A stretch of DNA of 53,552 nucleotides, taken from IMG/VR virus record IMGVR_UViG_3300046656_000217, positions 1 through 53,552 of that record, one strand, 5' to 3'. The stretch is from a virus. Lineage: Duplodnaviria; Caudoviricetes. A program made the position numbers and the translations under genes. The notes under the pieces are model-generated. The model saw nothing but the letters and a program-made list of their open reading frames with translations. It did no database searches and was not told the DNA's origin. Positions 4,286 to 22,141 of the stretch are shown here, in pieces. Position 1 is the stretch's first letter; each line of letters starts with the position of its first letter.

Positions 4286-4495
4286 TGGTCGGTCTCCGTT
4301 TGGCGCGTCGAACGGGGACCAACCTAAGCCGGGATCCGGAATTCACTGACAACTCGGGTGTGACACCCTAGTTCGTGTCGGTGAAATTCTCGCTTTGAGA
4401 ATTCGATGCGCGGAAGCAAACGAGCGCACGGAAGGGAAGATGAGAGAAAGACTTGCGACGAGTGAAATGAACCGCGCTCGGAAGCATCCGCGCGC

Positions 4496-9172: not shown

Positions 9173-10441
9173 CTATTCGAACGACGTCCGGAAGTCTTCA
9201 CGGCTCACCACCTGTTCGTGCTCGCCGACCGAGACCTTGATGGGCTCGGTGCCGTTGAGCATGGCCGCGGTGTAGATGTCGACGAACCACTTCGGCATCG
9301 GCCGGGCATTCTTCGGGGCCCCGATCATCGCATTCGCCAAGGCCGGGTCGGACAGGTAAGGATTCGGCCGCGGGTCGTACCCGACGGGGACGCCGCTCAT
9401 GTGCTTTACGGCGTCCGGCGAGTTGTCCCAATACTCCTCCTTCGCCATCTGGATCGCGGCCAGGCTCACCCCGCAGATTATGCACCGGCCGTACTCGATC
9501 CGGTGGCCCGGACACTTCAAGGGGACCGGGGGCGTCGCCCGCAACGAATCCTCGGCCGACTGGATCCGCGACTCCTCCAAATGGACCTGCCGGCCATTTT
9601 GGTGTGCCAGGTAGACGCCGTCGCCGAGCGGCTTGACGATCTCGTAGACCATGTTCGGCGGGTACCCGGTCACCAAGTCCCCCTGCTTGAACTTGTCCTT
9701 CGGCTTGTCGGCCTTCCTGACGATTTCGAGGATGCCCACTTCGTTGACGTACCGCTCGCCGTTCGGGCCCTCCAAGGCCACCTTGTCGCCGGGCAAGATC
9801 TCCCGGACCGGCCAATACGCCGCGTCGTTCCTCGATCCTTTGGCCCGGACCCAATCCCCTACCTCAATAGAAGGGAGGGCCTTCGACTCGTTCGACCAGA
9901 GCGTCGTCGGCTCGACCTTGTCGAACTCGGAGATCGGGCCGTCGACCGTGTTGCCCGACGTGCTCATCGCCTTCACCCATTGGTTGTCGAAGCTCATATC
10001 GATCACTCGGTAATCGACGCCCGGCACGCCCGAGCGACGCGGCCGGACCATGTCCCCTACCCCAATAGAAGGGAGCGGCGTGTCGACCTTCTCGAAGCGG
10101 TCGGGCGGACCGCTGGCCCTCCCGCCGTGCTCGGTCACCGCCGAGATCAAAGCGTCGCCGACGTCCGTTACCCGGTACGCGATTCTCGACCCCCGCGGCC
10201 GGACCAAGTCCCCCCGGCGAAATTCCGGTTTGCTCTCACTTTGAGAGCAAAATGCCCCTTGGTTTTCCGTCGGTTTTGACGGTGACACCGGACCGTCAAC
10301 GGGCGTCACCCACTCCTCGTTGAACAGGTGCAACCGGCCGTCGTCCGTCGACACGACCACGACGTCGTCGTACCAGACGTGGGCCTTCCCTCGACCCGCC
10401 GGGGTCATGACCTCAACCGGCGGTTTCGGCATCACCATCAT
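9173..10441 (-). CDS. Protein with tandem SH3/KOW-like repeats
   Basis: Four modules (FRRGDLVRP, IGVGDMVRP, IEVGDWVRA, FKQGDLVTG) with DNA-level repeats. Confidence 0.65.
   Translation of the reverse strand: MMVMPKPPVEVMTPAGRGKAHVWYDDVVVVSTDDGRLHLFNEEWVTPVDGPVSPSKPTENQGAFCSQSESKPEFRRGDLVRPRGSRIAYRVTDVGDALISAVTEHGGRASGPPDRFEKVDTPLPSIGVGDMVRPRRSGVPGVDYRVIDMSFDNQWVKAMSTSGNTVDGPISEFDKVEPTTLWSNESKALPSIEVGDWVRAKGSRNDAAYWPVREILPGDKVALEGPNGERYVNEVGILEIVRKADKPKDKFKQGDLVTGYPPNMVYEIVKPLGDGVYLAHQNGRQVHLEESRIQSAEDSLRATPPVPLKCPGHRIEYGRCIICGVSLAAIQMAKEEYWDNSPDAVKHMSGVPVGYDPRPNPYLSDPALANAMIGAPKNARPMPKWFVDIYTAAMLNGTEPIKVSVGEHEQVVSREDFRTSFE
10230..10250. promoter_or_regulatory. Palindromic site 2, TTGCTCTCA-CTT-TGAGAGCAA
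   Basis: Perfect 9-3-9 inverted repeat, inside a CDS. Confidence 0.75.
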
Positions 10442-10967
10442 GGGCTTCTCCTCGTTGATAAGGTCGGAACGGGTTTCTCATCCACCACAAGATCGCCGGG
10501 TCGTAGAACCCGGACTCTTCGAGCACGTCCGCCGCCGGACCGAGACCCGCCAGGTCACCCTCGGCAAGCCCGGCCAGGATCTCCTCGAACGCGGGCGGCG
10601 GCGAGCCCCCGCGGTTCGATACCCCCCACACGATCGCGTCCCGCAGATCGCCGAAGGCCCAGCGGTCCACCGGCTTCGGACGCGGCCTGCCCGCGTACGG
10701 AACGTCCTCGTACAAGCCCCACCCGATCGAGACCAAGCCCCGAGCCAGGGCCCGACGCTCCTCGATCGTCGCGATCCGCTTGAAGCCTTCCAGCATAGCC
10801 CGCTCCAACCGCAACCGAGATGCCGTCCACTCGGCGTACTCCCGGTAACGGGCACCCGCCAACTCACGAAACGTCTTGGAAATCAAGGCGTTCAACGAGT
10901 CGGACGATTCCGGCTCGACGGGCAAAATCGGGCTTTCGGGCTCAGATGTGTTCGCTTTCGACAACAC
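10413..10967 (-). CDS. Hypothetical protein with Gemmata-type 'ADxLEExG...IL' C-terminal motif (start uncertain)
   Basis: 'GDLAGLGPAADVLEESGFYDPAILWWMR' resembles the 'PILADALxxAG' family expanded in Gemmataceae. Confidence 0.5.
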   Translation of the reverse strand: MLSKANTSEPESPILPVEPESSDSLNALISKTFRELAGARYREYAEWTASRLRLERAMLEGFKRIATIEERRALARGLVSIGWGLYEDVPYAGRPRPKPVDRWAFGDLRDAIVWGVSNRGGSPPPAFEEILAGLAEGDLAGLGPAADVLEESGFYDPAILWWMRNPFRPYQRGEAHDGDAETAG

Positions 10968-11304
10968 TGCACCGTTGGCGCGGTTTCGACAGGTTAACAC
11001 CTTCAGGTCCGGCAGCAAGCGGAAAAGCCGACCCCCTGCAAAACCGATGTTTTTCCCTGAATTACGACGATCGGGGCACCGGCGACCACCCTGGGACCGG
11101 CCCGACAAGACGCTCGACGCACGGGCTTCCAGGCTCTCATCCGATGGGACGCGGGCCTTCAAAAAGGGGGAAGAAGGCAGGTGAATCAAATGCGGGCGCG
11201 CCGGGGGGCCGGGCCGGGCCGGGTCTGGTCCCTGCCCATTTCCCCCTTGGTTTCCTAGTGCTTTCCCCCCTGTCTGACTGCGAGCGTAGGACGCAAGGCG
11301 CAAC

Positions 11305-11640
11305 TTGCCCCGAGCCCCATCGGGTGCAGGTGCCGCGGGGCTTGTCCCTCATGGGAGGGGGAGTTCATCGGCTCGGGCGGGCTCGGGCTCGGGTGGCGAC
11401 GGGTGAAGGTGCTCGGCTCGGGTGCTGTTGTCCTGTCTACTCTGGGTATCGGGTGTCATCTTGTCCGGTTTCCCTGTCGTTCCGGGCTCGGGAGGGTGTT
11501 AAGCCTGGTTAACAAAGCGCGACTGACATTGTGTTAAGCCTGGTTAGCGCGGATTGTGAGAACGGGAAAGATTGTCCGGGGAATTGCGGGAGGGTGCTCG
11601 GGTGGGAATTACCGGGGAATGCGGTTCGCTGTCTGGTCAA
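11305..11640. promoter_or_regulatory. Divergent control region / possible genome-end or origin region with GCTCGG repeats and a 16-bp direct repeat
   Basis: Strand switch point; GTGTTAAGCCTGGTTA at 11496-11511 and 11531-11546; clustered GCTCGG. Confidence 0.55.
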
Positions 11641-11671
11641 TTCCCACAATCCCATTTTCCAAGGTGCTGAG

Positions 11672-12028
11672 ATGACAACGCAAGAGAACGAACAACGGAT
11701 TAATGAGGCAGTTTCCGAGCATGCGCGATTGAAAGCGGACCGGGCTCGGGAAGTGAACTTGGCTCGGGAGTTTTCCAAGGTGCTCCGGGAATGGCTGACA
11801 CCCTCTCAGATGGCGGAAGTGATTCGGCGAAACGCTACTCCCGAGTATGCCGACGGGTTGTGCTGCGCGTCCCACGATTTTTGTGATGCGAATATGGCGA
11901 TGGACGCGGCGCTACGGGTTAACTATGCCGACCGGATGACTGGCGATTGGGTGACTGAAGACGACGAACTACGGGGATTGTGGAATTCCGCTTGGGATAT
12001 TGCCAAGTCTAACGGGTTCACGGTCTGA
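11672..12028 (+). CDS. Early hypothetical protein
   Basis: Start re-called at MTTQEN behind AAGGTG; 'CASHDFCDANMAM' motif. Confidence 0.6.
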   Translation: MTTQENEQRINEAVSEHARLKADRAREVNLAREFSKVLREWLTPSQMAEVIRRNATPEYADGLCCASHDFCDANMAMDAALRVNYADRMTGDWVTEDDELRGLWNSAWDIAKSNGFTV

Positions 12029-12120
12029 CCCGGCCCGTCCTAGTTTCCCCGGTGCTATCGGCCGGGGAATTGTTGGGACGTGCCGATTTCCGGCCCGTTA
12101 ACTCTTGTGAGGGTCTGACG

Positions 12121-13506
12121 ATGAACTTTGCCGATTTAGTTGCAAGCGCTCCGCGGATTACCTTGGATGGGCGCCCCGTTGTGGTTTCCGAGAATCACGA
12201 CATGTCGTCGATTAACTGGGTCGCGGGATTATCCGACCCCGGGGAAATGATCGCTTGCGGCGCCTACCAAGAATTGCGCCGTTTGACGGGTGAGAACGAC
12301 GGGGATTATGCCAAGCGCCTTGTTCCCCTGATTGCTTCCCTCCCACCCGAGCACCGGGAACGGATAACCCGGGCCGGAATCGAGAGCGCGACAAAACGGG
12401 CGGGTCTCAGCATGACGAACGGGCGGGTCGCGGTTATGACTAGCGGGAATATCTCCCCCTGGCATGCGCTCGGAACGCACTTCTCGGGTCCGGTTTCCGG
12501 GGATATGGTCCTAGTTCCTTCCGGTACCAATTTCGACGTTGCCAAGCGGGAATTGGCCTACGAATTCCAAGGGAAGACAATCGCTTCCAAGTGTGCGTGG
12601 TCAATCGTCCGGACCGATACCGGGTTAGAACTCGGTTCGGTCGGGTCGAAATACAAGGTAGTCCAGAATCGGGAAGTGGTCGCGCTTGCCGATTCAATCG
12701 TCGGGGAATTCGGGGCTCGGTTTGAGACCGCGGGCGCCTTAGATGACGGGGCTCGGGTTTGGTATCAAATTGCCTTACCTAAACAGTCGTTCGCGCTGTT
12801 TGGTGGGAAGGTGCGAAATGAGGCAAGCGCCTTGTTTTCGTCATCTCATGACGGATCGGGAGCGCTGCTAGTCGTGCCGACAAGCGAAAACGTGGTTTGC
12901 AAAAATACCCATCGAATCGCGCTGAATAAGGCGCGCGGGAAAGGGATTGCAATCCGCCATACGGGAGACCCCCGAGCGAAAATCGAGGAATGCCGAAAGG
13001 CGCTCGGTTTGGTTGTGAAAGGTGCTGAAGTCTACGCGCAAACCGCCGACGCGCTTTCCCGGGCTCGGCTCGGAAATGAGCGCGTCTACTTCGGGTCGAT
13101 TTTGGATGAGGTTTTAACCGCGACGGAAGCGCAATTGGCCACGGGCCGGGAAGTGTGGGCTCGGTCCGATTCCGACGCGCTTGCGGGTATCATCGGCTCG
13201 GAACAGTCGAAGTATTTGGAGAAGCGCCGGGAAGAATTCGACGGTTTGGTAGAACTCAGGACGACGCTATTGGATGACATGTTGAACCGGTTTAACAGTG
13301 AAAACTGTGGCGCCGGTGGGATGCGGGGAAGCGCGTTTTCTGGGTATATGGCTGTCACGGAAAGCGCCGACCACGGTTTGCTCGGCGGACGACGACAGGG
13401 AAGCGAACGCAAGCGCGAGGAAACGCGGTTTGATTCTGTCACGGTCGGGAAGGCAGACGACATAAAGCAAATTGCTTTCCGGAACGCTAAGACCCTTTCG
13501 GCGTAG
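12121..13506 (+). CDS. DUF932 (TIGR03299-like) phage/plasmid protein
   Basis: 'PWHALG', 'VRTDT..LGSVGSKYKVVQN', 'FETAG.L..G..VW', 'SHDGS', 'VVCKNT', 'IRHTG' motifs; ATG follows conserved leader. Confidence 0.8.
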   Translation: MNFADLVASAPRITLDGRPVVVSENHDMSSINWVAGLSDPGEMIACGAYQELRRLTGENDGDYAKRLVPLIASLPPEHRERITRAGIESATKRAGLSMTNGRVAVMTSGNISPWHALGTHFSGPVSGDMVLVPSGTNFDVAKRELAYEFQGKTIASKCAWSIVRTDTGLELGSVGSKYKVVQNREVVALADSIVGEFGARFETAGALDDGARVWYQIALPKQSFALFGGKVRNEASALFSSSHDGSGALLVVPTSENVVCKNTHRIALNKARGKGIAIRHTGDPRAKIEECRKALGLVVKGAEVYAQTADALSRARLGNERVYFGSILDEVLTATEAQLATGREVWARSDSDALAGIIGSEQSKYLEKRREEFDGLVELRTTLLDDMLNRFNSENCGAGGMRGSAFSGYMAVTESADHGLLGGRRQGSERKREETRFDSVTVGKADDIKQIAFRNAKTLSA

Positions 13507-13770
13507 TTCACCCGAGCCCGAGTTAACCCGAGCACCCGCGGATTTCCCGCGGGTGCTTTCTTTTGCGCTCGAGTGCTCGGGCATTCCCCGGGCTCGGTAA
13601 GGTGCTCGGCAATCGCCCGGGAACCGAGCCGAGCCCGAGCCCGGCGGGTGCTCGGCATTCCGTCGGCTCGGAATGCGAGCCCGAGCCCGAGCCCGGGAAA
13701 TGCGGTTTAATGCGCTCGGGTGCTCTCCGGGAATTCCCGCGGGTGCTCGGGTGCTCGGGTCGATTCCCCT
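13507..13770. repeat. Dense cluster of CCGAGC/GCTCGG hexamers in both orientations
   Basis: More than a dozen copies visible in ~260 bp of non-coding DNA. Confidence 0.75.
13531..13564 (+). terminator. Intrinsic terminator after DUF932 gene
   Basis: AGCACCCGCGG/CCGCGGGTGCT stem followed by TTCTTTT. Confidence 0.7.
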
Positions 13771-13804
13771 GGTCAACCGCCGGTGTGTGTCGGCCGGAGA
13801 TGAA

Positions 13805-13820
13805 CGGCGCGGCGGTTGCT
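13805..13820 (+). promoter_or_regulatory. Sigma54-type -24/-12 promoter
   Basis: CGGCGCG-GCGG-TTGCT matches GG-N10-GC spacing and TTGC element. Confidence 0.55.
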
Positions 13821-13858
13821 TTACGTCGGCCGGGTCTATTTCCTCATGAGGGTCTGAC

Positions 13859-14074
13859 ATGACGACGGAAGCAAGCAAGCCGCGCGGTGAATTCGACCGG
13901 TCAGTCTGGAAGGATTCAGACTTCGCGCTGATCTTCAGCTATTTCCGGGAAACTCGGGAGATATTCAAGAACTGTCCCGAGAGGGCCGGGGAATTCGCGT
14001 CGGTCATGTTGGACGATTGCGAGAGGGCCGGGTCTGCTCTGCTCTGTATCATGCGGGGTTGCGGCGCAGTCTAA
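13859..14074 (+). CDS. Early hypothetical protein
   Basis: ATG directly after TGAGGGTCTGAC leader. Confidence 0.65.
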   Translation: MTTEASKPRGEFDRSVWKDSDFALIFSYFRETREIFKNCPERAGEFASVMLDDCERAGSALLCIMRGCGAV

Positions 14075-14090
14075 CGGCACGTCGGTTGCA
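14075..14090 (+). promoter_or_regulatory. Sigma54-type -24/-12 promoter
   Basis: CGGCACG-TCGG-TTGCA, near consensus TGGCACG-N4-TTGCW. Confidence 0.65.
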
Positions 14091-14148
14091 TCGATGCGAG
14101 CCCGGGGCAATTCCGCCCCGGGCTTTCTTCTTTACTGAGGGTCTGACG

Positions 14149-14421
14149 ATGACGAATCCCATCAATGCTATTGGTGCGATTGACCAATTGACCGGAGAAG
14201 TGGCGCGGCTGTCGTCATTTCTGCGGAATGAGGCGGACGGGATTAAGGACCAGTGGGAAGGACTGAAGCGGTGCGGCGGTGCTCGGGAAGATCATGCGGC
14301 CGAGATTCTGGCCAGACTGCGCATGATCCTGGACGACCTGGCCAAGTTCTGTACTCGCACGTCGGCCGAGATAACGGCCATGAAAGCCGATCCTTTCGAG
14401 CGCAAGCAGGAAGCGGCGTAG
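14149..14421 (+). CDS. Early hypothetical protein
   Basis: Start re-called at MTNPIN after conserved leader. Confidence 0.65.
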   Translation: MTNPINAIGAIDQLTGEVARLSSFLRNEADGIKDQWEGLKRCGGAREDHAAEILARLRMILDDLAKFCTRTSAEITAMKADPFERKQEAA

Positions 14422-14481
14422 GGGATTACTCGGGGCGCCTACTTCGGGCGCCCCGTTCCTTTCTCTCTGAGGGTCTGAACA

Positions 14482-14883
14482 ATGCGGCGAATCTGTACAA
14501 GTTTTGAGACGGTAACGCCGGAGAGTGCGGCCGAAGGTGATTTCTCGGATAGTGGCTGGACCGACAAGGACGGCGAAGAGCTAGACCCGTCGGCCGACGA
14601 TGTGGCCGAGCACGGGACCGAAGAAGCGGCGGCGGTTGTGCTGGCCGTTCGCTTCCTTGAGGACCGGGGATCGGTCGAGCCGTCTAGTTCTCCAACCTGG
14701 CACCCGCGAGTCTGGTACTCGACAACCGATCCGAACATGGACTACGCGACCGGGGCGGAAACTCGCCACTCGTTTCATCTCAAGGGTTATTCAGAGAAAG
14801 AGGAACGGGAGATATACCGGGTGCTGACCCGCCCGCTGGCTGACAAACTACGGGACGCGGGCCGGGCGATCCGCGGAGAGTAA
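14482..14883 (+). CDS. Early hypothetical acidic protein
   Basis: After conserved leader; 'FETVTPESAAEGDFSDSGW'. Confidence 0.65.
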   Translation: MRRICTSFETVTPESAAEGDFSDSGWTDKDGEELDPSADDVAEHGTEEAAAVVLAVRFLEDRGSVEPSSSPTWHPRVWYSTTDPNMDYATGAETRHSFHLKGYSEKEEREIYRVLTRPLADKLRDAGRAIRGE

Positions 14884-14884
14884 G

Positions 14885-14900
14885 CGGCACGTCTCTTGCT
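14885..14900 (+). promoter_or_regulatory. Sigma54-type -24/-12 promoter
   Basis: CGGCACG-TCTC-TTGCT. Confidence 0.65.
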
Positions 14901-14947
14901 TCACACAAGCGCCCCAATCCGGGGCGCTTTCCTTTTGAGGGTCTGAC

Positions 14948-15655
14948 ATGATGGAACGACTGATCGACAGGCTACGGCCGAAATCCTGGGAGGAAGTAAT
15001 TGGTCAACCGAAAGCGGTGGCCGCTTGCCGGGGATTCGCACGGGCCGGCGTCGGTGGCCGCGCGTTCTGGATTACGGGCAAGACGGGGACCGGTAAGACG
15101 TCCCTGGCTATGTTGCTGGCCGGGGAGTTGGCCGACCCCCTCTGCATCGAGAGCATGACCGGCCGGAGTTTGACGGGGCCGGGGGTCAAGGCGCTGGCTG
15201 CTCATTCGAGGTATATGGGTGTCGGCGTGAAGACGGGCCGCGTATTCGTGGTGAATGAGGCGCAAGGGTTGAAGCGGGAAGCCATTGAAGAGCTACTAGA
15301 AACCCTGGACACGGGGGAGATTCCCCGACATGTGTGCTGGATATTCACGACGACGATTGACGGGCAGGAAAGGCTATTTGACGAATCGATAGACGCTCAC
15401 CCGCTCTTGTCCCGGTGCTCGGTTATCCCTCTCACGTCTCAGGGGTTAGCTAAGCCGTTCGCGTCCTACTTGGAAACGGTCGATCCCCTCGGCCCTCGGC
15501 CGGCGAAGTTCTACGCTCGGTTGATTGAGGACTGCCGCAACAATCTGCGGGAAGCAATTTCGTGGTTAGAGAACGACGCATTGACCGCGGCGGGTGCCGA
15601 GCCGGCGATACCCGAAGTTAACAAAGCGCAAGCTGACACTGTTACTGCTTCTTAA
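14948..15655 (+). CDS. AAA+ ATPase of the clamp-loader/RarA clade
   Basis: 'LRPKSWEEVIGQ', Walker A GKTGTGKT, Walker B variant VVNEAQ, 'LLSRC' motif. Confidence 0.8.
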   Translation: MMERLIDRLRPKSWEEVIGQPKAVAACRGFARAGVGGRAFWITGKTGTGKTSLAMLLAGELADPLCIESMTGRSLTGPGVKALAAHSRYMGVGVKTGRVFVVNEAQGLKREAIEELLETLDTGEIPRHVCWIFTTTIDGQERLFDESIDAHPLLSRCSVIPLTSQGLAKPFASYLETVDPLGPRPAKFYARLIEDCRNNLREAISWLENDALTAAGAEPAIPEVNKAQADTVTAS

Positions 15656-15685
15656 CACTAACCATTAAATCCGTGAGGGTCTGCA

Positions 15686-15898
15686 ATGCTTCAGTTCAAG
15701 GACATTCACCTAGACCGGCGAATTAAGAAGCGGGCGGTCATGTCCGCCTCTCCGGTGCTGAAGGACGGGACGGCTTACGTTAAGTTACCTGACCAGCCGG
15801 GGGTTGTATTTGAGTTTGAGATGAAGGGTTCCAAGTGGCGGTGTGTCGGCATGGGCCGTGCGGACCACTCGGCTTACCGTGGGCTATTTCCTGGATAG
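15686..15898 (+). CDS. Early hypothetical protein
   Basis: After leader variant TGAGGGTCTGCA. Confidence 0.6.
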   Translation: MLQFKDIHLDRRIKKRAVMSASPVLKDGTAYVKLPDQPGVVFEFEMKGSKWRCVGMGRADHSAYRGLFPG

Positions 15899-15983
15899 GT
15901 GCGACGCGCGGAAACCGGCCCGGGTTTGGCCCTGGCCGGATTCCCTGCGCCGGCCGGTGCGGGATTCCTCAAGAGGGTCTGAC

Positions 15984-16838
15984 ATGAGCGCGGTTAAGAC
16001 GTTGCCGGTGCGACTGCACCACTACCGTACCTTTGTGGACGAGCCGGCGTACGCTGCCGTCCTGGCCGAGATTAAGGCGAACGAAGTACCTGGCCGCGGG
16101 CATCCGATGCACGCGATTGCTGACCCGAAGAATAACGCCGACCGGGTTCACAACCACGGCGACGTCGAGGAGATCGAGATCGAGTTAGATCACCTGTTCG
16201 GGAACCAGTTAAACACGACCGACGGGCGGCGAGTGTTCGATTGGTGGGAAGGAATCGTCTACGTCAACGGTCATCGTGGCCGAAGCCGGTGCGGTCATTG
16301 GGTCGAGGTCACGCCGGAACTCGCAGAAGCCCGGATGGATTGCTGGAAGTGCGGGTATTGCGGGGAACGCTACGGGCCGAACCACAAGCCGCTACCCGGT
16401 GGGGGATTCTGCCTTGCTTGCATCGGTTCGCCGTACCTGAAGACGGAAGACATGTACCTGTTGCGATTGCTGCCCGTCATCGAGCCCGAGCCGAAGCGGG
16501 AACCGTTGACCGATGACGAGAAGGCCGCATTGATGCCGGTCTATCTGGACAAGCAGACGAAGCGGACCGAGCAAGAGGCGGTCAAGCTGCGGGTGAAGAT
16601 TCTTGACGAGTATTCGACGGCGATTCAGAAGGCAACGACCGAGCGGGATGGGATGATCTGGCTGTTGGATCACGGGTACAACGCGGATAACGTCATCTAC
16701 TACAACCATACCGGCCGGTTCGGGTTCGGCTGGCGGTCGAAACTCTCGGCCGAAGTGAAGGATAAATTGCTGGATTTGCTCTGTGAATTCCAGTTCCCGT
16801 ACACGATCGAATGGACGGGAGGGAAGATCGAAAGCTAA
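15984..16838 (+). CDS. Early hypothetical protein with CxxC motifs
   Basis: Start re-called at MSAVKT after AGAGGGTCTGAC. Confidence 0.65.
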   Translation: MSAVKTLPVRLHHYRTFVDEPAYAAVLAEIKANEVPGRGHPMHAIADPKNNADRVHNHGDVEEIEIELDHLFGNQLNTTDGRRVFDWWEGIVYVNGHRGRSRCGHWVEVTPELAEARMDCWKCGYCGERYGPNHKPLPGGGFCLACIGSPYLKTEDMYLLRLLPVIEPEPKREPLTDDEKAALMPVYLDKQTKRTEQEAVKLRVKILDEYSTAIQKATTERDGMIWLLDHGYNADNVIYYNHTGRFGFGWRSKLSAEVKDKLLDLLCEFQFPYTIEWTGGKIES

Positions 16839-16927
16839 GGGGTGCGACCATCCCGCCCGGCCCGGCTTGTTCCGGGCCGGGTAGGACGGCCGGCTTTTCG
16901 GTTGTCTATCCTCTTGAGGGTCTGACG

Positions 16928-17668
16928 ATGCCGGAACCAACTGCGCACCTGCACAAGTACAAGTGTGACGAGTGCGGCGACGAGTGGGAAACGACCAGTG
17001 AGTACGACGACGATGCCGAGTGTGGCGAGTGCGGCCATGCTCAGGAGTGTACGGAAGAGTCGATTCCGTTGTACGCCGAAGAGCCGGCGGCAATCGCGGC
17101 GCTGCGGGCGTTATTCGAGCATTGCGCGATGACGCACAAGCATTGGGGCGACGGCTGCAACCGGAAAGAGGCTAACGCCGCGGAGAAAGCCGGCCGGGAT
17201 GCGCTGGCCGCATGGGATGCGGGAAAGGCGGTGGCCGAGCCCAAGCCGGTCGGTGTTCGATGCGCCGGGTGCGACGAAGTTCGGCCGGTGTTTACCTGGG
17301 TGCCGGGTAGCGACGGGTACGAACACTTCCCGGCGTGCTCGGCCGAGTGCGAAGCGGCGCTGAAGGCTGCCGGCGATCCGGACGACGAAGATGACAAGCC
17401 CTACGCGGATTCTCTCTCTGGCCCTGTTACGGCATTTCACCGGTCGTTAGGCCGCGCCATGGTCTGCGAGCCGATCCCCGACGATTACCCCGTCCGACCG
17501 CTGGACGTGGACGAGCCGGCGAAGGATCGCAAGACCTGCGGATATTGCGGCTGGTCGTGGGATGACGCGATTGTCACCGGCATGACACCGGCGCCGGGTG
17601 CCCGGTGTCCGTTCGAGTCGTTCCACCGGCCCGAGATGGTTGAGGCGGGGAAGGCGGTGCGGTCGTGA
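16928..17668 (+). CDS. Multi-zinc-finger hypothetical protein
   Basis: Start re-called at MPEPTA after leader; several CxxC pairs. Confidence 0.65.
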   Translation: MPEPTAHLHKYKCDECGDEWETTSEYDDDAECGECGHAQECTEESIPLYAEEPAAIAALRALFEHCAMTHKHWGDGCNRKEANAAEKAGRDALAAWDAGKAVAEPKPVGVRCAGCDEVRPVFTWVPGSDGYEHFPACSAECEAALKAAGDPDDEDDKPYADSLSGPVTAFHRSLGRAMVCEPIPDDYPVRPLDVDEPAKDRKTCGYCGWSWDDAIVTGMTPAPGARCPFESFHRPEMVEAGKAVRS

Positions 17669-17865
17669 AACGCGCCATCACAATCCCGACCGTCCTTTAC
17701 CGTCGGCTGATCTGGGTATCCCAGCAAGCCCGCGATACGCTCGACAACCTACAAGATGTTGGGTTGGACAGGAACGAAACGACTGGCAAGGAATTTGAGG
17801 ACTGCCGTAAATTGAGGAAGGCACTCGAAGCCTTGGACAAAGTCCGTAACGCGAAAGCGGTCTGA
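17665..17865 (+). CDS. Hypothetical protein
   Basis: GTGA coupling to upstream gene. Confidence 0.5.
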   Translation: MKRAITIPTVLYRRLIWVSQQARDTLDNLQDVGLDRNETTGKEFEDCRKLRKALEALDKVRNAKAV

Positions 17866-17875
17866 TACTCGTAAA

Positions 17876-17963
17876 GCTCGGGCCGATCCTTGGAGGGGTG
17901 ACGTCAGACCCCATCCCCCGGGGCGCCGCTTGTTGCGGCGGGAATCGGACCATCGGCCCGAGC
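17876..17963 (+). ncRNA. Candidate small structured RNA with a segment antisense to the early-gene leader
   Basis: Perfect 12-bp closing stem (17876-17887/17952-17963), two inner hairpins, CGTCAGACCC at 17902-17911. Confidence 0.5.
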
Positions 17964-17993
17964 CTCTTTAACCTCCACCCTCTTAGGTGATGA

Positions 17994-18224
17994 ATGAACG
18001 CGAATTACACTGGTGAACACGGCAACAGGACTAAGCCGCGGATCACTAATGATCTGTTCGATTACCTCCAAAAGTGGAAGGGTTGGGTCGGCGCGGATGC
18101 CGTCAGCCGGGCGAAGTTCGACCGGGACGTATCGGACCAATTCGGGCTATCCCTGTCCGATGCGTCCGCTGCCGTGGCTGAAGTGTTCGGGGCGAACTAC
18201 GCGAGCCCGACGGTGGAAGGATGA
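17994..18224 (+). CDS. Hypothetical protein
   Basis: ORF with AGGTG SD, coupled to next gene. Confidence 0.5.
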   Translation: MNANYTGEHGNRTKPRITNDLFDYLQKWKGWVGADAVSRAKFDRDVSDQFGLSLSDASAAVAEVFGANYASPTVEG

Positions 18225-18457
18225 CCAAAGCGGAATTCGTGCGGGCTGCGATCCCGCAGCCTATCGCCCTGGGTGGTATGCCGCTGTCCGCCGACCCCCG
18301 GCTCTTCCCGGCCGGGTCGTGCGGCTGGCGGTGGAACGGCTCTCTGTACGTCAAGGTCGGCGGCGACTGGCTGTCCGTCCTGGCTGCCGTCCAGATGACC
18401 GTCATCGGGTCGAGAAAGTGGGAAGCTGACATTGCCGCGATCAGGACGACCGCGTAG
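18221..18457 (+). CDS. Hypothetical protein
   Basis: ATGA coupling. Confidence 0.55.
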   Translation: MTKAEFVRAAIPQPIALGGMPLSADPRLFPAGSCGWRWNGSLYVKVGGDWLSVLAAVQMTVIGSRKWEADIAAIRTTA

Positions 18458-18486
18458 ATTCGATTCCGACGCATGGAGGTTAGCGT

Positions 18487-18684
18487 ATGCTAGTTCTCAG
18501 CATGTCTGAACATTCCGGCGGCGACGACGACATCATCCTAAGAGATGCGGCGACCGGCCGGATTATCTGTGAAATTACACTCGTCGAGGTGCGCGGGAGC
18601 AAAGCCCGGTTGGGCTATGCCGCGCCCGACGACGTCGAACTCAACCGGCGGGCAATCGATCAAAAGAAGCACCCCGCCGGGTGA
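18487..18684 (+). CDS. csrA: CsrA/RsmA-like RNA-binding translational regulator
   Basis: 'MLVLS...ITLVEVRGSKARLGYAAPDDVELNRR' aligns by eye with CsrA (MLVLSR...ITVVEIRGDKVRLGIDAP..V.VHR); GGAGG SD. Confidence 0.75.
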   Translation: MLVLSMSEHSGGDDDIILRDAATGRIICEITLVEVRGSKARLGYAAPDDVELNRRAIDQKKHPAG

Positions 18685-18714
18685 CCTGTCCTTTCTTTCT
18701 CTCTGAGGATTCCC

Positions 18715-19851
18715 ATGACGACCGACGCGCCCGATGGGGTGGAAGCCCCGTCAATCCACATGCCGGTGGTGAAGTACAGCCCGGACGACGCGGCGATTGC
18801 CGTGCTCCGGAAAGAGTGTGCCGAGTTGTTGGCCGATCCCGCTGCGGCGGTGGCCACGGACGAAGGGTACGAGCGGGTAAGGTCGGCCCTACAGATCACC
18901 CGGAAGTGGCGGGGTGAGATCGAGCGGAACCGGGTGAGCCTGAAGGCCGACGCCTTGGAGTTCGGCCGGCTGGTTGACCTGCGGGCGAAAGAGGCGCTGG
19001 CCAAGGTGACCTCGATTGAAGACCCGCTGAAGGCGGCGAAGGATGCCAAGGACGACGAGAAGAAGAAGGCCAAGGAAGCCGCGGAGAAAGCCGAGCGGGA
19101 AGCCCTGGAAGCCGCGGAGCGGGCCAAGGTCGAGGCCGAAGTTGCACGGCTGAAGGCGATTCGGGACGCGGAGCAAGCCAAGCTGGACGCGGACCGGGCG
19201 GCGCTGGCCGCGGAACGGGCGGCGATGTTGGCCGAACAGAAGGCCGCGGACGACCGGCGGCGGGCCGAACAGGATGCCGCGGACGCCAGGCGGAAGGCCG
19301 AACAGGACGAGCGCGATCGCGCTGCCGCGATTGAGGCGGCGAGAGTTGCGGCAGTTAACGCGGAAGCCGCCCGCATCCTGAAGGAATCCTCGGACAAGCT
19401 GGAAGCGGAGCGGGCCGCGCTGAAGGCCGAAGCCGATCGCCAGGCGAAGGCCGAAGCCGATCGACTGGAAGCGATCCGGGCGGCGAAGGAGAAGGAAGAC
19501 CGGGCCGAGTTCGAGCGACAGACGAAGGAACGGCTGGCCAAGGAAGCGGAGATGACGGCCGCGCGGCTGGCCAAGGAAGCGGCCGACAAGGCTGAGGCCG
19601 AGCGTCTGAGGGCCGAAGCCGCTGCTAAAGCCAAGGCGGAAGCCGATATGAGGGAACAAGCCCGGTTGCTGGCCGCTGCACCGGACGTCGAGAAGCTGAA
19701 CAAGTTCGGCGAGATGTTGTTGGAGTTCCTGGACGACAACAAGCCGAAGCTGAAGACGGCCGACGCGAAGGGGATCTTCGAAGTTCAGTTCAAGATCATC
19801 ACCGATTCCGCTATCGCCTTCCAGAATTACCGGGTCGAGAAGAAGAAGTAA
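18715..19851 (+). CDS. Long coiled-coil protein (Ala/Glu/Lys/Arg-rich)
   Basis: Charged helical repeats; position before ERF typical of recombination modules. Confidence 0.7.
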   Translation: MTTDAPDGVEAPSIHMPVVKYSPDDAAIAVLRKECAELLADPAAAVATDEGYERVRSALQITRKWRGEIERNRVSLKADALEFGRLVDLRAKEALAKVTSIEDPLKAAKDAKDDEKKKAKEAAEKAEREALEAAERAKVEAEVARLKAIRDAEQAKLDADRAALAAERAAMLAEQKAADDRRRAEQDAADARRKAEQDERDRAAAIEAARVAAVNAEAARILKESSDKLEAERAALKAEADRQAKAEADRLEAIRAAKEKEDRAEFERQTKERLAKEAEMTAARLAKEAADKAEAERLRAEAAAKAKAEADMREQARLLAAAPDVEKLNKFGEMLLEFLDDNKPKLKTADAKGIFEVQFKIITDSAIAFQNYRVEKKK

Positions 19852-19880
19852 CCTTCCATCTCCAACTCAAGAGGACTGCG

Positions 19881-20099
19881 ATGAGCAAGCACAACAGGGA
19901 ACGCCGGAAGGCCGGGGTCGAGCGGGCCAAGCTGATCGCGGCCGGCAAGATCAAGCCGACGCCTCGGGTGCGGGACACCCGGAAGGTGATCTACAAGGAC
20001 ACCGAAGCCGGTCCGTCCCGCCACCGGGAAACGAAGCACAACCCGCCGTGGTGGATCACGCCGAAGGAACCGTTGACCGCTACTGTTTCATCTCTCTAA
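19881..20099 (+). CDS. Small basic hypothetical protein
   Basis: GAGG SD; fills gap in operon. Confidence 0.5.
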   Translation: MSKHNRERRKAGVERAKLIAAGKIKPTPRVRDTRKVIYKDTEAGPSRHRETKHNPPWWITPKEPLTATVSSL

Positions 20100-20111
20100 C
20101 AGGGGCTCACC

Positions 20112-20837
20112 GTGGTAGAAGAAAGCGCACTGGCCACCTTCAACCCGCAGCCTTTGTTGGCTGCGGCGATCGAGGGGAAGGCGACGCCCGAGACGTTGGC
20201 CAAGCTGACCGACTTGATGGAACGCTGGATGAAGATGCTGGCCGAGAAGCAGTTCAACGAAGCGATGAACCGGGCACAGATCAACGCCCCGACCGTCGTC
20301 CGGGATCTGAAGAACAGCGAGACGGGTAAGGGGTACGCTCCGGTCGAGACGGTCCAGACCTACATGAAGCCGGTGTATACCGTCGAGGGGTTCGCCCTGT
20401 CGTTCGGCACCGACGTCGGCTCGGGTGAAGGACTGACGCACGTCTGGATGGACACCCGGCACGTCGGGGGTCACACCGCCCGTACCTGGCTGCACAACGT
20501 CCCTCTCGACGTGGCCGGTCCCAAGGGCGGCAAGACGAAGAGCGACATTCAGGGGCTCATGTCCAGTATCAGCTACGCCCAAGGCCGGCTGATCCGCATG
20601 GCGTTCAACGTCACGGTGGCCGACGAAGATCGCGACGGGCAGATGGACGTCATCTCCGATGAACAGGTCGAGGAGATCGAAGGCTGGTTCACCAAATGCG
20701 AAGAGGCCGGCAAACCGGTCAGTCAAGCTAGGATGCTGCACTGGCTGCGGGTCGATTCGTGGGACCGGCTGCCGCTCAAGAAGTACCCGCTCTGCATTGA
20801 CGAACTCACCCGCAAGTTCAACGAGAAGAAACAATGA
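20112..20837 (+). CDS. ERF-family single-strand annealing protein
   Basis: 'YAPVETV...GFALSF...HVGGH...IQGLMSSISYAQGR' resembles ERF signature; adjacent to YqaJ. Confidence 0.75.
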   Translation: MVEESALATFNPQPLLAAAIEGKATPETLAKLTDLMERWMKMLAEKQFNEAMNRAQINAPTVVRDLKNSETGKGYAPVETVQTYMKPVYTVEGFALSFGTDVGSGEGLTHVWMDTRHVGGHTARTWLHNVPLDVAGPKGGKTKSDIQGLMSSISYAQGRLIRMAFNVTVADEDRDGQMDVISDEQVEEIEGWFTKCEEAGKPVSQARMLHWLRVDSWDRLPLKKYPLCIDELTRKFNEKKQ

Positions 20838-21457
20838 GACACATCCCCTGTGAACAAGGGTCTCAGGAATGGTACCTGGCCCGCCGGGGGATCCCCACGG
20901 CGAGCCGGTTCGGGGAGATCCTGACCCAGAAGACGTTGCGGCTCTCCGAGTCGTGCGAGGGTTACATCGACGAGTTGATCGGCGAGCGACTGGCGACGAT
21001 GCTGCCGGAAGGGGTCGAGAACTACACGTCCCGGGCGATGCAATGGGGACAGGCCACGGAAGAGGACGCCCGCCGCTACTTCAGCCTTCAGACCAACTAC
21101 GACGTGAAGAAGTGCGGATTCCTCATCACCGACGACAACAAGTTCGGGGCGAGCCCGGACGGATTGGTGTACGACGGCGAGACCCTGATCGGTGGGCTCG
21201 AACTGAAGTGTCCCCAGCCGAAGGCCCACATGGGGTACGTGCGGAAGAAGGTTCTGCCGGACGATCACCGGGCCCAGGTTCACGGCGGGATGTTCGTGTC
21301 GATGCTGCCTCGGTGGTGGTTCCTGTCCTACTGTCCGGGCTGCCCGCCCCTGTTGAGATCCGTGGTCCCCGACTCGTATACCCGGATGCTCGGGGAAGCG
21401 TTGTTCGAGTTCGACAAGCGGCTTCAAGACGCAATCGCCGCACTCCGCGACGGTTGA
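20834..21457 (+). CDS. YqaJ/lambda-exonuclease-family protein
   Basis: 'QGSQEWYLARRGIPTAS', 'MQWG...E', 'GASPDGL', 'ELKCP' motifs. Confidence 0.9.
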   Translation: MRHIPCEQGSQEWYLARRGIPTASRFGEILTQKTLRLSESCEGYIDELIGERLATMLPEGVENYTSRAMQWGQATEEDARRYFSLQTNYDVKKCGFLITDDNKFGASPDGLVYDGETLIGGLELKCPQPKAHMGYVRKKVLPDDHRAQVHGGMFVSMLPRWWFLSYCPGCPPLLRSVVPDSYTRMLGEALFEFDKRLQDAIAALRDG

Positions 21458-21480
21458 TTTAACCCTTTCAGGATGCGCCA

Positions 21481-21789
21481 ATGGCTAAGGCCAAACCGAA
21501 GAAGAAGAACGGTCTCACCGCGAAGGAGAAGGAGCAACCGCCCATCCCAGGGGCGGAACAAGACGACAAGATTCAGGCGATCCACACCGCGGCGGTCGCG
21601 TACAAGCAGACCCAGCAAGAATTCAGCGAAGCCGGCGGGGAGTTGAGTGAGGCTAAGATCCGGCTGATCGAGATCATGAAGCAGCACGACAAGACCCACT
21701 ACCAGCACGGCAACGTCGAGGTCGATCTGAGGGCCGGCAAGGACCGGATCAAGGTGAAGATCCAGAACGCCGAGAAGGACGAGAAGTAA
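21481..21789 (+). CDS. Hypothetical protein
   Basis: 102 aa ORF in operon. Confidence 0.6.
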   Translation: MAKAKPKKKNGLTAKEKEQPPIPGAEQDDKIQAIHTAAVAYKQTQQEFSEAGGELSEAKIRLIEIMKQHDKTHYQHGNVEVDLRAGKDRIKVKIQNAEKDEK

Positions 21790-21790
21790 T

Positions 21791-21828
21791 CCCCTCCCCC
21801 TATCCCCTCTCCCCCTCGGGGAGAGGGG
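21791..21828. repeat. REP/BoxC-like palindromic element
   Basis: Pyrimidine tail plus CCCCTCTCCCC-CTC-GGGGAGAGGGG 11-bp stem. Confidence 0.5.
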
Positions 21829-21844
21829 CCAATCGAGGACCATC

Positions 21845-22141
21845 ATGAACGCCGATGGGATTGGGGATACGTTCGCCGGCCAGCGAATCGACAAGGCCCG
21901 TCTGTCCGCGAAGCGTCGGGCAATCGCCGTTGCGATCTTGGAGCGGGAAAAGATCTGTTTCGAGTCTTGTGCCAATGGCAAAAGACTGTTCGTTCTCTAC
22001 TCGATAGACTTTTGGCCCGGGTCCGAATTGTGGGTCGACAGACACACAAAGCAACGCGGTCGTGGCGTCGCGTCTTTGATTCGCCACATTGACACAACCT
22101 GTCCGTCGGCACGACGGGCGTTGGAGGAATGTTGTGGCTAA
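21845..22141 (+). CDS. Hypothetical protein
   Basis: GAGG SD; overlaps ParB-like start. Confidence 0.45.
   Translation: MNADGIGDTFAGQRIDKARLSAKRRAIAVAILEREKICFESCANGKRLFVLYSIDFWPGSELWVDRHTKQRGRGVASLIRHIDTTCPSARRALEECCG

Follow-up and report, generated by a model that had tools for sequence, protein, structure and literature searches.

A start-linked tag before eight consecutive genes of an uncultured soil-metagenome phage

Start-associated sequences and gene-boundary cassettes in other phages

The SAS of Cluster K mycobacteriophages are portrayed, in the parts of the source drawn on here, as short, asymmetric sequences that occur in virtually one orientation in the non-structural part of the genome, typically 3-7 nt from a start codon and in 11-19 copies across half a genome (Pope et al. 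2011, PMC3203893). According to the same passages, they favour ATG starts, combine a Shine-Dalgarno (SD) core with conserved letters beyond the SD pairing, precede unrelated gene families and sometimes contain the stop codon of the upstream gene, and about half of them have conserved imperfect 17-bp inverted repeats on their 5' side, the extended SAS or ESAS (PMC3203893). The function of SAS is described as unexplained in the section consulted of a 2025 paper, which called for experimental verification (PMC12699233). [quoted passage not shown] 2010, PMC2839356; Comeau et al. 2014, PMC4122927). They resemble one another chiefly in the promoter and the GGGG...CCCC stem, and these excerpts also report mini-circles and measured terminator activity (PMC2839356; PMC4122927).

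Here we describe an uncultured phage from soil metagenomes in which eight consecutive, unrelated genes are preceded by a 12-letter tag made up of a predicted ribosome-binding site and a fixed spacer. Of the systems known to us, those that the locus appears to resemble most closely are SAS and, minus the promoter, the PeSL cassettes. The window, that is, the whole stretch of 53,552 nt that was analysed, comes from a phage record with a CheckV completeness of 82%, so that ~18% of the genome is missing.

The tag, its eight genes and the intergenic cassette

The tag is a GAGG SD core followed by an invariant spacer, and its start-linked copies, each containing the motif GAGGGTCTG, are as follows.

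12108 to 12119 (+): tag copy 1, TGAGGGTCTGAC, motif from 12109; 1 nt 5' of the ATG of 12121-13506 (DUF932 / phrog_1221 protein)
13847 to 13858 (+): tag copy 2, motif from 13848; abuts the ATG of 13859-14074 (71 aa, no family)
14136 to 14147 (+): tag copy 3, motif from 14137; 1 nt 5' of the ATG of 14149-14421 (90 aa, no family)
14468 to 14479 (+): tag copy 4, TGAGGGTCTGAA, motif from 14469; 2 nt 5' of the ATG of 14482-14883 (133 aa)
14936 to 14947 (+): tag copy 5, motif from 14937; abuts the ATG of 14948-15655 (AAA+ / clamp-loader-like, phrog_5846)
15674 to 15685 (+): tag copy 6, TGAGGGTCTGCA, motif from 15675; abuts the ATG of 15686-15898 (70 aa)
15972 to 15983 (+): tag copy 7, AGAGGGTCTGAC, motif from 15973; abuts the ATG of 15984-16838 (phrog_26133 protein)
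16915 to 16926 (+): tag copy 8, motif from 16916; 1 nt 5' of the ATG of 16928-17668 (246 aa, zinc-ribbon-like cysteines)

A genome-wide count, which the initial annotation had proposed as a check, found 10 exact matches to GAGGGTCTG in the whole 53.5-kb record against 0.50 expected (100 shuffles, maximum 3, none reaching 10); the reversed pattern, taken as a control, gave 0 and 0. Eight of these matches, all on the + strand between 12109 and 16924, are start-linked, and the two others (35980, +; 38494, -) lie inside long ORFs with no start codon behind them. In all eight start-linked copies the motif ends 2-4 nt, and the GAGG 7-9 nt, before the ATG. GAGGGTCTGAC is present in six of them and the full TGAGGGTCTGAC in five, while the base on the 5' side of the motif is T in seven and A in one; identity ends sharply at the tag edges, and the flanks vary among the copies. 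The initial annotation had placed eight copies, six of them exact, 0-2 nt before eight ATGs, and both statements hold. It had seen no copy before genes outside this block, and this is likewise borne out: the motif precedes none of 44 other hand-curated gene starts of the phage. None of the 11 one-mismatch copies precedes a start, no tag was found before the structural genes on the - strand, and the tag copies are confined to 4.8 kb, all within the + strand replication/recombination block. The tagged genes differ in length and family, and we infer from their position and content that they are early; the 133-aa protein has 22 non-self relatives, at no more than 57% identity.

The remaining genes of the phage use GGAG, GGAGG, GAGG or AGGTGAT with variable spacers, and the presence of GGAG, GGAGG or AGGTGAT implies a canonical 16S tail. 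Scored against a generic anti-SD tail, which we assumed and which may not be the host's, the tag has a predicted pairing of -6.3 to -6.8 kcal/mol, and the other genes have means of -6.9 (20 genes) and -7.6 kcal/mol (24 genes). Because the predicted pairing of the tag is only average, its extra conservation is probably not due to ribosome pairing, in agreement with the earlier proposal that the conserved spacer goes beyond what an SD needs.

Like SAS, the tag is short, asymmetric, present in several copies of one orientation (8/8 on the + strand) and only a few nucleotides from an ATG, is found only in the non-structural block before unrelated genes, and joins an SD core, of the generic-tail pairing given above, to further conserved letters. 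It differs from SAS in its sequence, in its host and in its occurrence in a soil-metagenome phage, and the SAS consensus GGGATAGGAGCCC, allowing up to two deviations, matched once (18243-18255, - strand), not at a start, against 1.66 expected; this single chance-level match indicates that the tag is an analogue of SAS and not a homologous member. Measured against the account of SAS in the parts of the paper used here, the tag is also denser (8 copies in 4.8 kb versus 11-19 over half a genome), its upstream GC hairpins are unrelated in sequence whereas ESAS are conserved 17-bp inverted repeats, and its in-frame inner stop is a regular feature, which those parts do not describe for SAS (PMC3203893).

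The tag closes a composite intergenic unit that runs, from 5' to 3', through a stop codon, a terminator-like GC hairpin, a CU-rich tract, the tag and the ATG. Its other elements are listed below.

12045 to 12069 (+): GC hairpin 5' of tag copy 1, not immediately followed by a T tract
13530 to 13558 (+): terminator-like hairpin after the DUF932 gene, 12 pairs and a T-rich tail
13805 to 13821 and 14885 to 14901: boxes similar to the one at 14075
14075 to 14091 (+): box CGGCACGTC..TTGCAT, directly 3' of the gene 2 stop, read from the sequence
14098 to 14125 (+): terminator-like hairpin between gene 2 and tag copy 3, 11 pairs, tail TCTTCTTTAC
14431 to 14455 (+): terminator-like hairpin between gene 3 and tag copy 4, 10 pairs
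14907 to 14929 (+): terminator-like hairpin between gene 4 and tag copy 5, 9 pairs
about 16855 to 16882 (+): GC hairpin 5' of tag copy 8, 11 pairs

Hairpins lie 5' of five to six of the eight tag copies and are mutually unrelated in sequence, and those after genes 1-4 are four predicted terminator-like hairpins on the + strand (9-12 pairs, T-rich tails). The five GC-rich hairpins named in the initial annotation are confirmed; the site at 15675 has none, and the structures at 13848 and 15973 are weaker or of another kind. Boxes of the CGGCACGTC..TTGCAT type form the 5' edge of three cassettes. Some leaders fall into sub-families with longer likeness (33 nt at 70-85%; 24 nt at 79-88%), as would be expected from copying.

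Set beside the published excerpts on PeSL, the cassette is similar in being composite and intergenic, with a predicted terminating stem-loop and, at its 3' end, the SD and start codon that belong to the following gene, and in being repeated around small genes of unknown function. The likeness among copies lies in the SD and spacer here, and in the promoter and GGGG...CCCC stem in PeSL. The analogy with T4 PeSL drawn in the initial annotation nevertheless fails at its defining promoter: between 10400 and 22000 the + strand yielded no sigma-70-like site, and the two sites detected were both on the - strand, against 2.0 expected with a consensus from which that of the host may differ.

Breaks in a diverged relative and tags of distant relatives

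The soil metagenome run X5 contains a relative whose contigs diverge from the window by 6.5-8.5%; these contigs are short and were aligned at 80% likeness, so that parts called unlike below may be homologues at greater divergence. In one contig 13833 runs straight into 14072, and tag copy 2 and gene 2 are missing; past the joint it matches for 82 nt, to just past tag copy 3 and its ATG, and is then unaligned for ~510 letters. A second contig matches 14880-15683, stopping at the last letter of tag copy 6, with 393 and 74 unlike letters beyond its ends, and a third, with 81 unlike letters outside the match, starts at 12106, 2 nt 5' of tag copy 1. Three contig alignments hence stop 0-2 nt from a tag edge or at a cassette edge. 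A further indel, from 18481 to 18736, falls at an ordinary GGAGG start region without a tag. This gene loss and these breaks in similarity lend support to the repeated intergenic cassette suggested in the initial annotation, and the one joint and three alignment ends, with one untagged indel, may correspond to the indels and replacements at cassettes that the PeSL excerpts describe for close relatives. Breaks at gene boundaries would also be expected from selection on random recombinants.

The inner TGA of the tag shares its frame with the upstream gene in seven of the eight copies (binomial P=0.0026, a value that should be about doubled because two TGA positions were examined), and in 5/5 short hairpin cassettes it is reached in the upstream frame without an intervening stop. 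The other frames of these cassettes are almost stop-free too, so the openness of the frame says little. Tag copy 6 is the only one that lacks the inner TGA (it reads TGC); it also lacks a hairpin and is out of frame with the upstream gene. This frame relation and the X5 breaks are new observations.

Two distant relatives, found through the phrog_26133 protein, carry tags of their own, which are clustered on one strand and consist of an SD, 3 nt, a stop, 0-4 nt and the ATG. The tag GGAGCACTAGAC occurs in three records, in 5, 5 and 6 exact copies plus one single-mismatch copy in each, and its copies span ~3.2 kb in the record that has seven. The tag GGAGGGCTGA has 16 copies in a 4.6-Mb Hyphomicrobiales MAG, of which only 6 cluster on one contig, in a 7.4-kb part at the phrog_26133 homologue; SAS, by comparison, are characterised by being rare in or missing from the host genome. 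The inner stop closes open frames of 213-1272 nt in all six copies at one relative locus (L105), and at another (L070) it terminates the gene begun at the preceding tag copy in three of six, as judged by hand. In these two relatives the tag stop is often the real stop of the upstream gene.

Possible modes of action

On balance, we lean towards the view that the tag is a start-associated stop-start junction that acts on the mRNA, mainly in cis, and whose identity is kept by cassette copying and recombination together with function. This reading starts from the observed position, number, strand, spacing and block restriction of the tag, from its frame relation and from the hairpins and the breaks in the relative. 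GAGG would act as SD core, and GTCTGAC would hold the GAGG 7-9 nt away from the ATG and supply a UGA 1-4 nt 5' of the start. The tag would head each ORF that is translated on its own within the initial ~5 kb of a rightward replication/recombination operon, as the last module after the upstream stop, a GC hairpin resembling an intrinsic terminator or attenuator, and the CU-rich tract. Every ORF behind structured RNA would thereby obtain an identical ribosome loading site, and translation arriving from upstream would be halted just 5' of the next start. The tag would thus act in translation, the hairpins would act as terminators, and no dedicated reader would be needed. A fixed distance to the ATG is easier to reconcile with a role on RNA or in translation than with a DNA operator. 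The letter-for-letter identity most likely comes from cassette copying and recombination in addition to function, and it would make the cassettes the joints where the phage loses, gains or replaces genes. Perfect identity over 9-12 nt in eight copies with differing flanks would, however, also result from a sequence-specific reader, which could be encoded in the missing ~18% of the genome; no trans-acting reader or regulator, protein or RNA, was identified in the record at its CheckV completeness of 82%.

We regard it as possible but unlikely that the tag is the recognition site of such a trans-acting regulator, controlling the whole gene set either as a protein that represses or cleaves the leaders or as a base-pairing RNA. 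In T4, RegA is a translational repressor and RegB a nuclease that cuts in the GGAG of early leaders, and the sites of both are degenerate. The tag is comparable in the idea of a gene class that is marked at its ribosome-binding sites and shut off by one factor, but is one invariant 12-mer. The letters outside the SD are the same in 8/8 copies amid varying flanks while SD strength is merely average, as a regulator would predict, yet neither a RegA- or RegB-like protein was detected among the phage proteins (Pfam/PHROG) nor an RNA-binding or nuclease family among those of the block (Pfam, PHROG and Atlas). The RNA version has one candidate.

17876 to 17963 (+): structured non-coding element ending the tagged block, with a 12-bp outer stem and two inner hairpins

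The predicted fold of this element (-59.7 kcal/mol, z -2.9) was equalled by 0/200 shuffles, and GTCAGACCC at 17903-17911 is exactly complementary over 9 nt to GGGTCTGAC of the tag. Of the 222 letters in the X5 piece covering 17747-17968, 5 differ, whereas the other X5 pieces listed diverge by 6.5-8.5%; the 9-mer survives a 1-nt deletion at 17909. Against this, the site at 17903 is not statistically exceptional: ranked by pairing with the tag, it shares only third or fourth place with other distinct + strand sites, 18 of 17,843 overlapping windows being equal or better, and its complement is partly paired inside the element's own hairpin. Three more 9-nt tag complements all lie in coding DNA, the + strand holds no mirror copy of the tag with at most one mismatch in 11, no complement of at least 9 nt to their own tag was found at the loci of the two relatives, and the element had no Rfam match. 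The element is only a candidate tag-pairing RNA.

We give little credence to a role in read-through, whereby ribosomes that pass the primary stop would keep the terminator from forming as they cross the hairpin and, by halting at the tag UGA 1-4 nt 5' of the ATG, would favour re-initiation, or, in a weaker form, the UGA would be a backup stop. The shared frame (7/8), the 5/5 short cassettes open up to the TGA, and the single out-of-frame copy that lacks both TGA and hairpin are what this would produce, and in the relatives the upstream gene often really terminates at the tag stop. However, the primary stops are of the TAA or TAG type, with a G behind them in 4/5 short cassettes, and such stops terminate efficiently in model bacteria. 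At other tight junctions of this strand block TAA likewise serves as a normal stop, and the near absence of stops in the other frames and the doubling of P weigh against it as well. We know of no read-through, antitermination or restart coupling of this kind in bacteria.

That the tag is a DNA site, either an asymmetric operator of the "stoperator" type or a recombinase target, seems to us improbable to a similar degree. Stoperators act on DNA, blocking transcription through a bound repressor, are spread over both genome arms and keep no fixed distance to a start codon. The tag is local (4.8 kb, not genome-wide), keeps its distance to the ATG to within 2 nt and includes an SD core, neither of which a DNA operator needs; the distinct repeat GTGCTCGG and CCGAGCCCGAG, which fills long non-coding regions, is a better candidate for an operator or iteron. 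The tag does share with the Cluster A stoperators, as outlined in the portion of the paper used here, its shortness, asymmetry, one orientation relative to transcription and an intergenic position (PMC3203893). Both are about 13 bp long. The phage moreover encodes a ParB-like protein and a serine recombinase (Pfam Resolvase), which also matched PHROG families of DNA invertases and integrases, and direct repeats of GTCTA, similar to the tag core, border an X5 indel.

Finally, a GAGG placed 7-9 nt from the start is usual for an SD and 8-mers (SD plus 3-4 nt) recur 4-11 times before starts at the phage loci L078, L071 and L114, but it is very improbable that the tag is only a good ribosome-binding site whose identity is a passive remnant of recent leader duplication, given that the eight genes have neither length nor family in common and so were not duplicated together with their leaders, that identity is cut off sharply at the tag edges, that X5 contigs, 6.5-8.5% different elsewhere, align up to those edges, and that the frame relation of the inner TGA would be unexpected.

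A start tag on eight consecutive genes

First, we find that the 12-nt motif, a GAGG Shine-Dalgarno (SD) core followed by the fixed spacer GTCTGAC, is a real, non-random and lineage-specific start tag. A genome-wide count, proposed as a check in the initial annotation, gave ten exact copies of GAGGGTCTG in the window against 0.50 expected from shuffles (0/100 of which reach ten), and the reversed-pattern control has no occurrence in the window. Eight of the copies (tags 1-8) lie on the + strand between 12109 and 16924, are in every case followed by an ATG after 2-4 nt, and precede eight consecutive ORFs whose lengths and families are unrelated; the remaining two exact copies fall within long ORFs. 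The tagged genes are:

12121-13506 (+), gene 1, DUF932 protein
13859-14074 (+), gene 2
14149-14421 (+), gene 3
14482-14883 (+), gene 4
14948-15655 (+), gene 5, AAA+ protein
15686-15898 (+), gene 6
15984-16838 (+), gene 7, phrog_26133 protein
16928-17668 (+), gene 8

An alignment of the leaders anchored on the motif gives TGAGGGTCTGAC as the conserved core, exact in five copies, with one change in two and with two changes in one, and likeness among the leaders stops at the start codon. Immediately 5' of the motif runs a C/T-rich stretch (50-90% C+T over the preceding 20 nt, against a window mean of 49%). None of the 44 other gene starts, hand-curated from the ORF listing, carries the motif, which bears out the earlier description of a leader shared by eight starts and confined to this block; these 44 genes use GGAG, GAGG, GGAGG or AGGTGAT at variable distance from the start. 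TAA or TAG stops end 7/8 tagged genes and 24/44 others, a count from which we draw no inference. A second recurring leader word, AACAGG, stands behind a CT-rich stretch before the starts at 20112, 25917 and 31323 (+) and at 8789 (-).

The window is the entire IMG/VR virus record (53,552 bp, linear class, CheckV completeness 82%, G+C 63%), and its DNA is present in soil and rhizosphere metagenome runs; none of the 8 runs listed is an RNA run. Its + strand block of ~11.7-33.4 kb encodes the DUF932 protein, the AAA+/clamp-loader-like protein, an Erf-like annealing protein, an exonuclease, a ParB-like protein, a helicase, a DNA methyltransferase and a serine recombinase, and the - strand genes at 1-10.4 kb and 33.4-53.5 kb include the major head protein, virion proteins and large unassigned proteins. 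No close cultured phage was found by tblastn, the best matches of the gene 7 protein being at most 43% identical (9 records) and the capsid protein having 0 matches among cultured phages. Distant capsid homologues are spread over MAGs of many phyla (best, a Planctomycetaceae MAG at 34%), homologues at 90% and 89% identity exist in the protein collection, and a search for tRNA genes as pointers to the host found none in the window. Scans of IMG/VR for a two-copy tag pattern returned 69 loci, all unrelated and the multi-copy ones coding repeats, and a 15-mer scan for relatives returned 63 loci, 62 with one copy and one with two. Protein-guided scans with gene 7, DUF932, capsid and AAA proteins (viral contigs, JGI metagenomes, GTDB genomes) recovered only distant relatives at up to 47% identity or a 1.9-kb capsid fragment, and an Atlas search with the proteins of genes 4 and 8 gave no match above chance.

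Second, judged with a generic 16S tail, the tag is an average SD that carries seven or eight further invariant letters beyond ribosome pairing. The GAGG ends 7-9 nt from the ATG, a normal SD arrangement. When the 20 nt 5' of each start are paired in silico with this generic tail, which may differ from that of the actual host, the eight tagged leaders score -6.3 to -6.8 kcal/mol, against means of -6.9 (20 other genes, + strand) and -7.6 (24 other genes, - strand). On this measure the strength is average and the extra letters are not accounted for by ribosome pairing; with the generic tail, the claim that conservation exceeds the needs of an SD therefore stands. The AGGTGAT-type SDs on other genes of the phage imply a canonical 16S tail. 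A mini-hairpin between the CU tract and GAGGG that would mask the SD appears in most folds, but it is no stronger than with shuffled upstream letters, only 1/8 copies falling below 0.05. The TCTGA within the tag resembles an ECF-type -10, but we reject a promoter reading: the tag has no conserved -35 to partner this -10-like TCTGA, and a transcript start would fall beyond the ATG.

Cassette anatomy and the in-frame stop

The intergenic units, here called cassettes, share one order: the upstream stop (sometimes with a box), a hairpin, the CU tract, the tag and the ATG. Folding confirmed the hairpins that had been noted upstream of most tags. A terminator-like hairpin (9-12 pairs, T-rich tail) follows each of the genes starting at 12121, 13859, 14149 and 14482, and GC hairpins also lie upstream of tags 1 and 8. 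A shared box, CGGC(A/G)CG(T/G)C..TTGC(A/T)T, opens three cassettes at 13805, 14075 and 14885, at or after the upstream stop codon. The leaders form sub-families that are alike over longer stretches (70-85% over 33 nt in one case, 79-88% over 24 nt in another), which points to copying among sites. On the + strand at 10400-22000 no sigma-70-like promoter was found, so the downstream genes must rely on hairpin read-through or on an unrecognised type of promoter. 3' of the block some genes are translationally coupled (GTGA at 17665, ATGA at 18221), and the leaders at 18715 and 19881 retain the CU tract and (T/A)GAGG without the spacer letters.

The frame relation of the tag is unexpected. Letters 9-11 of the tag read TGA, and this TGA lies in the reading frame of the upstream gene in 7/8 copies, the upstream stop being 90, 351, 72, 57, 63, 84 and 87 nt away; the exception, at 29 nt, reads TGC and has no hairpin. 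The binomial chance of at least 7/8 in frame is 0.0026, to be about doubled because two TGA positions were examined. No stop interrupts the frame between the primary stop and the tag in any of the five short hairpin cassettes; since the other frames there are also nearly stop-free, only the phase is informative.

Two gene ends, GTC-TGA-C (12022-12029) and GTC-TAA-C (14069-14075), have the letters of the tag's 3' half. GTGCTCGG occurs 21 times in the window against 3.4 expected and CCGAGCCCGAG, at up to one mismatch, 22 times against 4.0; their arrays are dense in the two long non-coding stretches of the + strand block, 11380-11605 (before the first gene) and 13510-13760 (after the DUF932 gene), are scattered elsewhere, and are candidate operators, iterons or an origin. 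The ORF at 18715-19851 (+) encodes a 378-aa protein that belongs to neither a PHROG nor a Pfam family; its numerous internal direct repeats are rich in A, E and K codons.

Natural variation and the proposed working of the tag

Third, three metagenome runs with window-like DNA offer a view of the block in nature. In X2 and X3 the stretch is nearly identical to the window, and the contigs of X5, a diverged relative, are 6.5-8.5% different. One X5 alignment starts at 12106, 2 nt 5' of tag 1, with 81 more letters that do not fit. In another contig 13549-13833 is joined straight to 14072, with 238 nt skipped and 0 letters between, and tag 2 and gene 2 are gone; here 82 nt more fit, to ~14153 (by arithmetic), just past tag 3 and its ATG, with ~510 letters unaligned, and the indel is flanked by the direct repeat GTCTA (13834-13838 and 14069-14073). 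A further X5 contig fits over 14880-15683; this alignment opens with the stop and box of the cassette preceding the AAA gene and closes on the final letter of tag 6, and 74 and 393 unlike letters lie beyond its two ends. On these alignments X5 appears to lack one gene and to break at tag edges in three places, with cassettes and the AAA gene kept. This reading uses the joint and the ends of the contigs and takes no account of the gaps in X5 depth over genes 3, 4 and 6; the X5 letters inside the tags are visible in part.

The comparison of relatives for cassette gain or loss, as suggested in the initial annotation, gives a mixed picture: the loss of gene 2 and the three breaks at tag edges may speak for it, but X5 also lacks 254 nt at 18481-18736 (a 65-aa gene at 18487-18684 and the first codons of 18715-19851) at an ordinary, untagged GGAGG start region, the left edge lying 2 nt after GGAGG. 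Breaks at gene starts may thus simply reflect surviving recombinants. Moreover, since these are short metagenome contigs aligned at 80% likeness, "unlike" may mean more diverged, not replaced.

Any mechanism beyond ribosome binding is inferred; on balance, we lean towards a cis-acting junction tag whose identity is kept by copying and recombination. Such a tag would supply a uniform ribosome-loading site behind each structured punctuation element, its stop would halt upstream translation 1-4 nt short of the next start, and copying and recombination among cassettes would maintain its identity, whereby the cassettes would become seams for gene exchange. If the cassettes truly are seams of gene exchange, they would account for the swapping of small accessory genes into a functioning operon with expression kept, and they would also provide ready-made portable expression junctions.

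We consider it unlikely that the tag has a sequence-specific reader, protein or RNA, which would amount to a one-step switch for a whole gene class. At 17876-17963 (+) lies an 88-nt non-coding element that folds into an outer stem of 12 bp and two inner hairpins (-59.7 kcal/mol, z -2.9). A 9-nt stretch of this element complements the tag exactly, and its conservation is unusual: an X5 contig fits over 17747-17968, ending at the element's 3' foot, with only 5/222 letters different, against 6.5-8.5% in the other listed X5 pieces. However, its complement site ties only third or fourth among distinct + strand sites for tag pairing, comparable tag complements lie in coding DNA, and the relatives' tagged loci examined hold no counterpart of an anti-tag RNA. 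Pairing of an anti-leader RNA with the tag is not exceptional, and Rfam searches, the element included, found nothing at the gathering threshold or with E values up to 1.

It is improbable that the tag serves an antitermination device coupled to translation, as the point at which read-through ribosomes land, or that it is a backup stop for read-through. In such a device each short cassette would keep the terminator hairpin in the upstream gene's frame and place an in-frame UGA 1-4 nt ahead of the following AUG; a ribosome past the primary stop would melt the terminator, RNA polymerase would continue, and translation would restart on the next gene, one signal setting the polarity of both transcription and translation along the operon. 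That the tag acts as a DNA site seems to us similarly doubtful, and we give very little credence to the tag as a passive remnant of duplication.

Relatives with their own tags and known start-associated sequences

Finally, analogous tags were found in two other lineages. The gene 7 protein has a very confident predicted fold (pLDDT 94.8) with no Foldseek match in the PDB at E up to 0.001 (best VIA-align Z 4.7 among PDB representatives), and its family, phrog_26133, is conserved across many uncultured phages as well as BcepNazgul, Sansa and Enc34. The protein has 110 homologues, none more than 55% identical to it, and their alignment led to 35 viral and 6 genomic loci. GGAGCACTAGAC occurs in three near-identical viral records, with 5-6 exact copies and one single-mismatch copy each within ~3.2 kb and 0 copies in the opposite orientation in those records, and GGAGGGCTGA occurs in a Hyphomicrobiales MAG, where 6 of its 16 genome-wide copies lie within 7.4 kb around the gene 7 homologue. 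Both lie on the gene strand and are built as an SD, three letters, a stop codon, 0-4 nt and a start codon (GTG in one copy at locus L070). At locus L105 the tag-internal stop closes open frames of 213-1272 nt in 6/6 copies, the gene 7 homologue included; at L070 a hand check found that it closes the gene begun at the previous tag copy in 3/6, with one ambiguous and two not. Because the stop ends upstream genes in these relatives, the tag is best seen as a stop-start junction element; in the window a primary stop and hairpin lie in phase upstream of the tag.

The closest known description is that of the start-associated sequences (SAS) of Cluster K mycobacteriophages. Like the SAS described in PMC3203893, the tag is asymmetric, in one orientation, associated with non-structural genes and placed a few nt before mostly ATG starts, with an SD core and, judged with the generic 16S tail, unexplained conserved letters. 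The SAS consensus is absent from the window, so by its sequence the tag stands outside that family, and the extended form (ESAS) has conserved inverted repeats that the tag lacks. Literature on "start-associated sequence(s)" covers, among the matches listed, mycobacteriophages and one Citrobacter phage genome announcement. SAS have been known since 2011 without a mechanism, and their function was still open in 2025 (PMC12699233). The tag is a second, unrelated SAS-like example, from a phage outside the actinobacterial phages, and its anatomy is clear: an SD, a fixed spacer and an in-frame stop, with a terminator-like hairpin upstream. Such a design is therefore no peculiarity of mycobacteriophages, and the analogous tags of two distant relatives add to this case. 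To known start tags it adds the in-frame stop, the terminator-like partners and natural variation suggestive of gene exchange at its edges, and its frame relation, spacer letters and cassette seams are testable features.

The analogy with the promoter-early stem-loop (PeSL) elements of T4-type phages, drawn in the initial annotation, holds for the stem-loop and for the 3'-terminal SD and ATG, and may extend to a role as seams of modular shuffling, all described for PeSLs in PMC2839356 and PMC4122927. It fails for the sigma-70-like promoter by which those sources define PeSLs, none being found on the + strand at 10400-22000.

When 55 loci recovered with the gene 7 and capsid proteins (L070-L124) were screened by k-mers, tags of 12-mer grade were reported, apart from the window, for the two tagged lineages alone. 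Other relatives have different repeated elements before genes (16-bp or 21-bp palindromes, or a motif and hairpin), and shorter SD-plus-spacer repeats also occur among the loci. Among phrog_26133 relatives, L094 has 17 copies of the perfect palindrome GGTCTCACGTGAGACC and one half-match, several just upstream of an SD, L085 has CTTAGAACC..GGTTCTAAG nine times, and L092 has GAGGCTTGC seven times, followed by a hairpin. L114 is a contig from a Hyphomicrobiales MAG and carries a distant homologue of the capsid protein; on its - strand (1466-6560) GGGAGAT(C/T) occurs 15 times, with 11 copies 3-6 nt before an ATG and often behind a CACTAC-like word.
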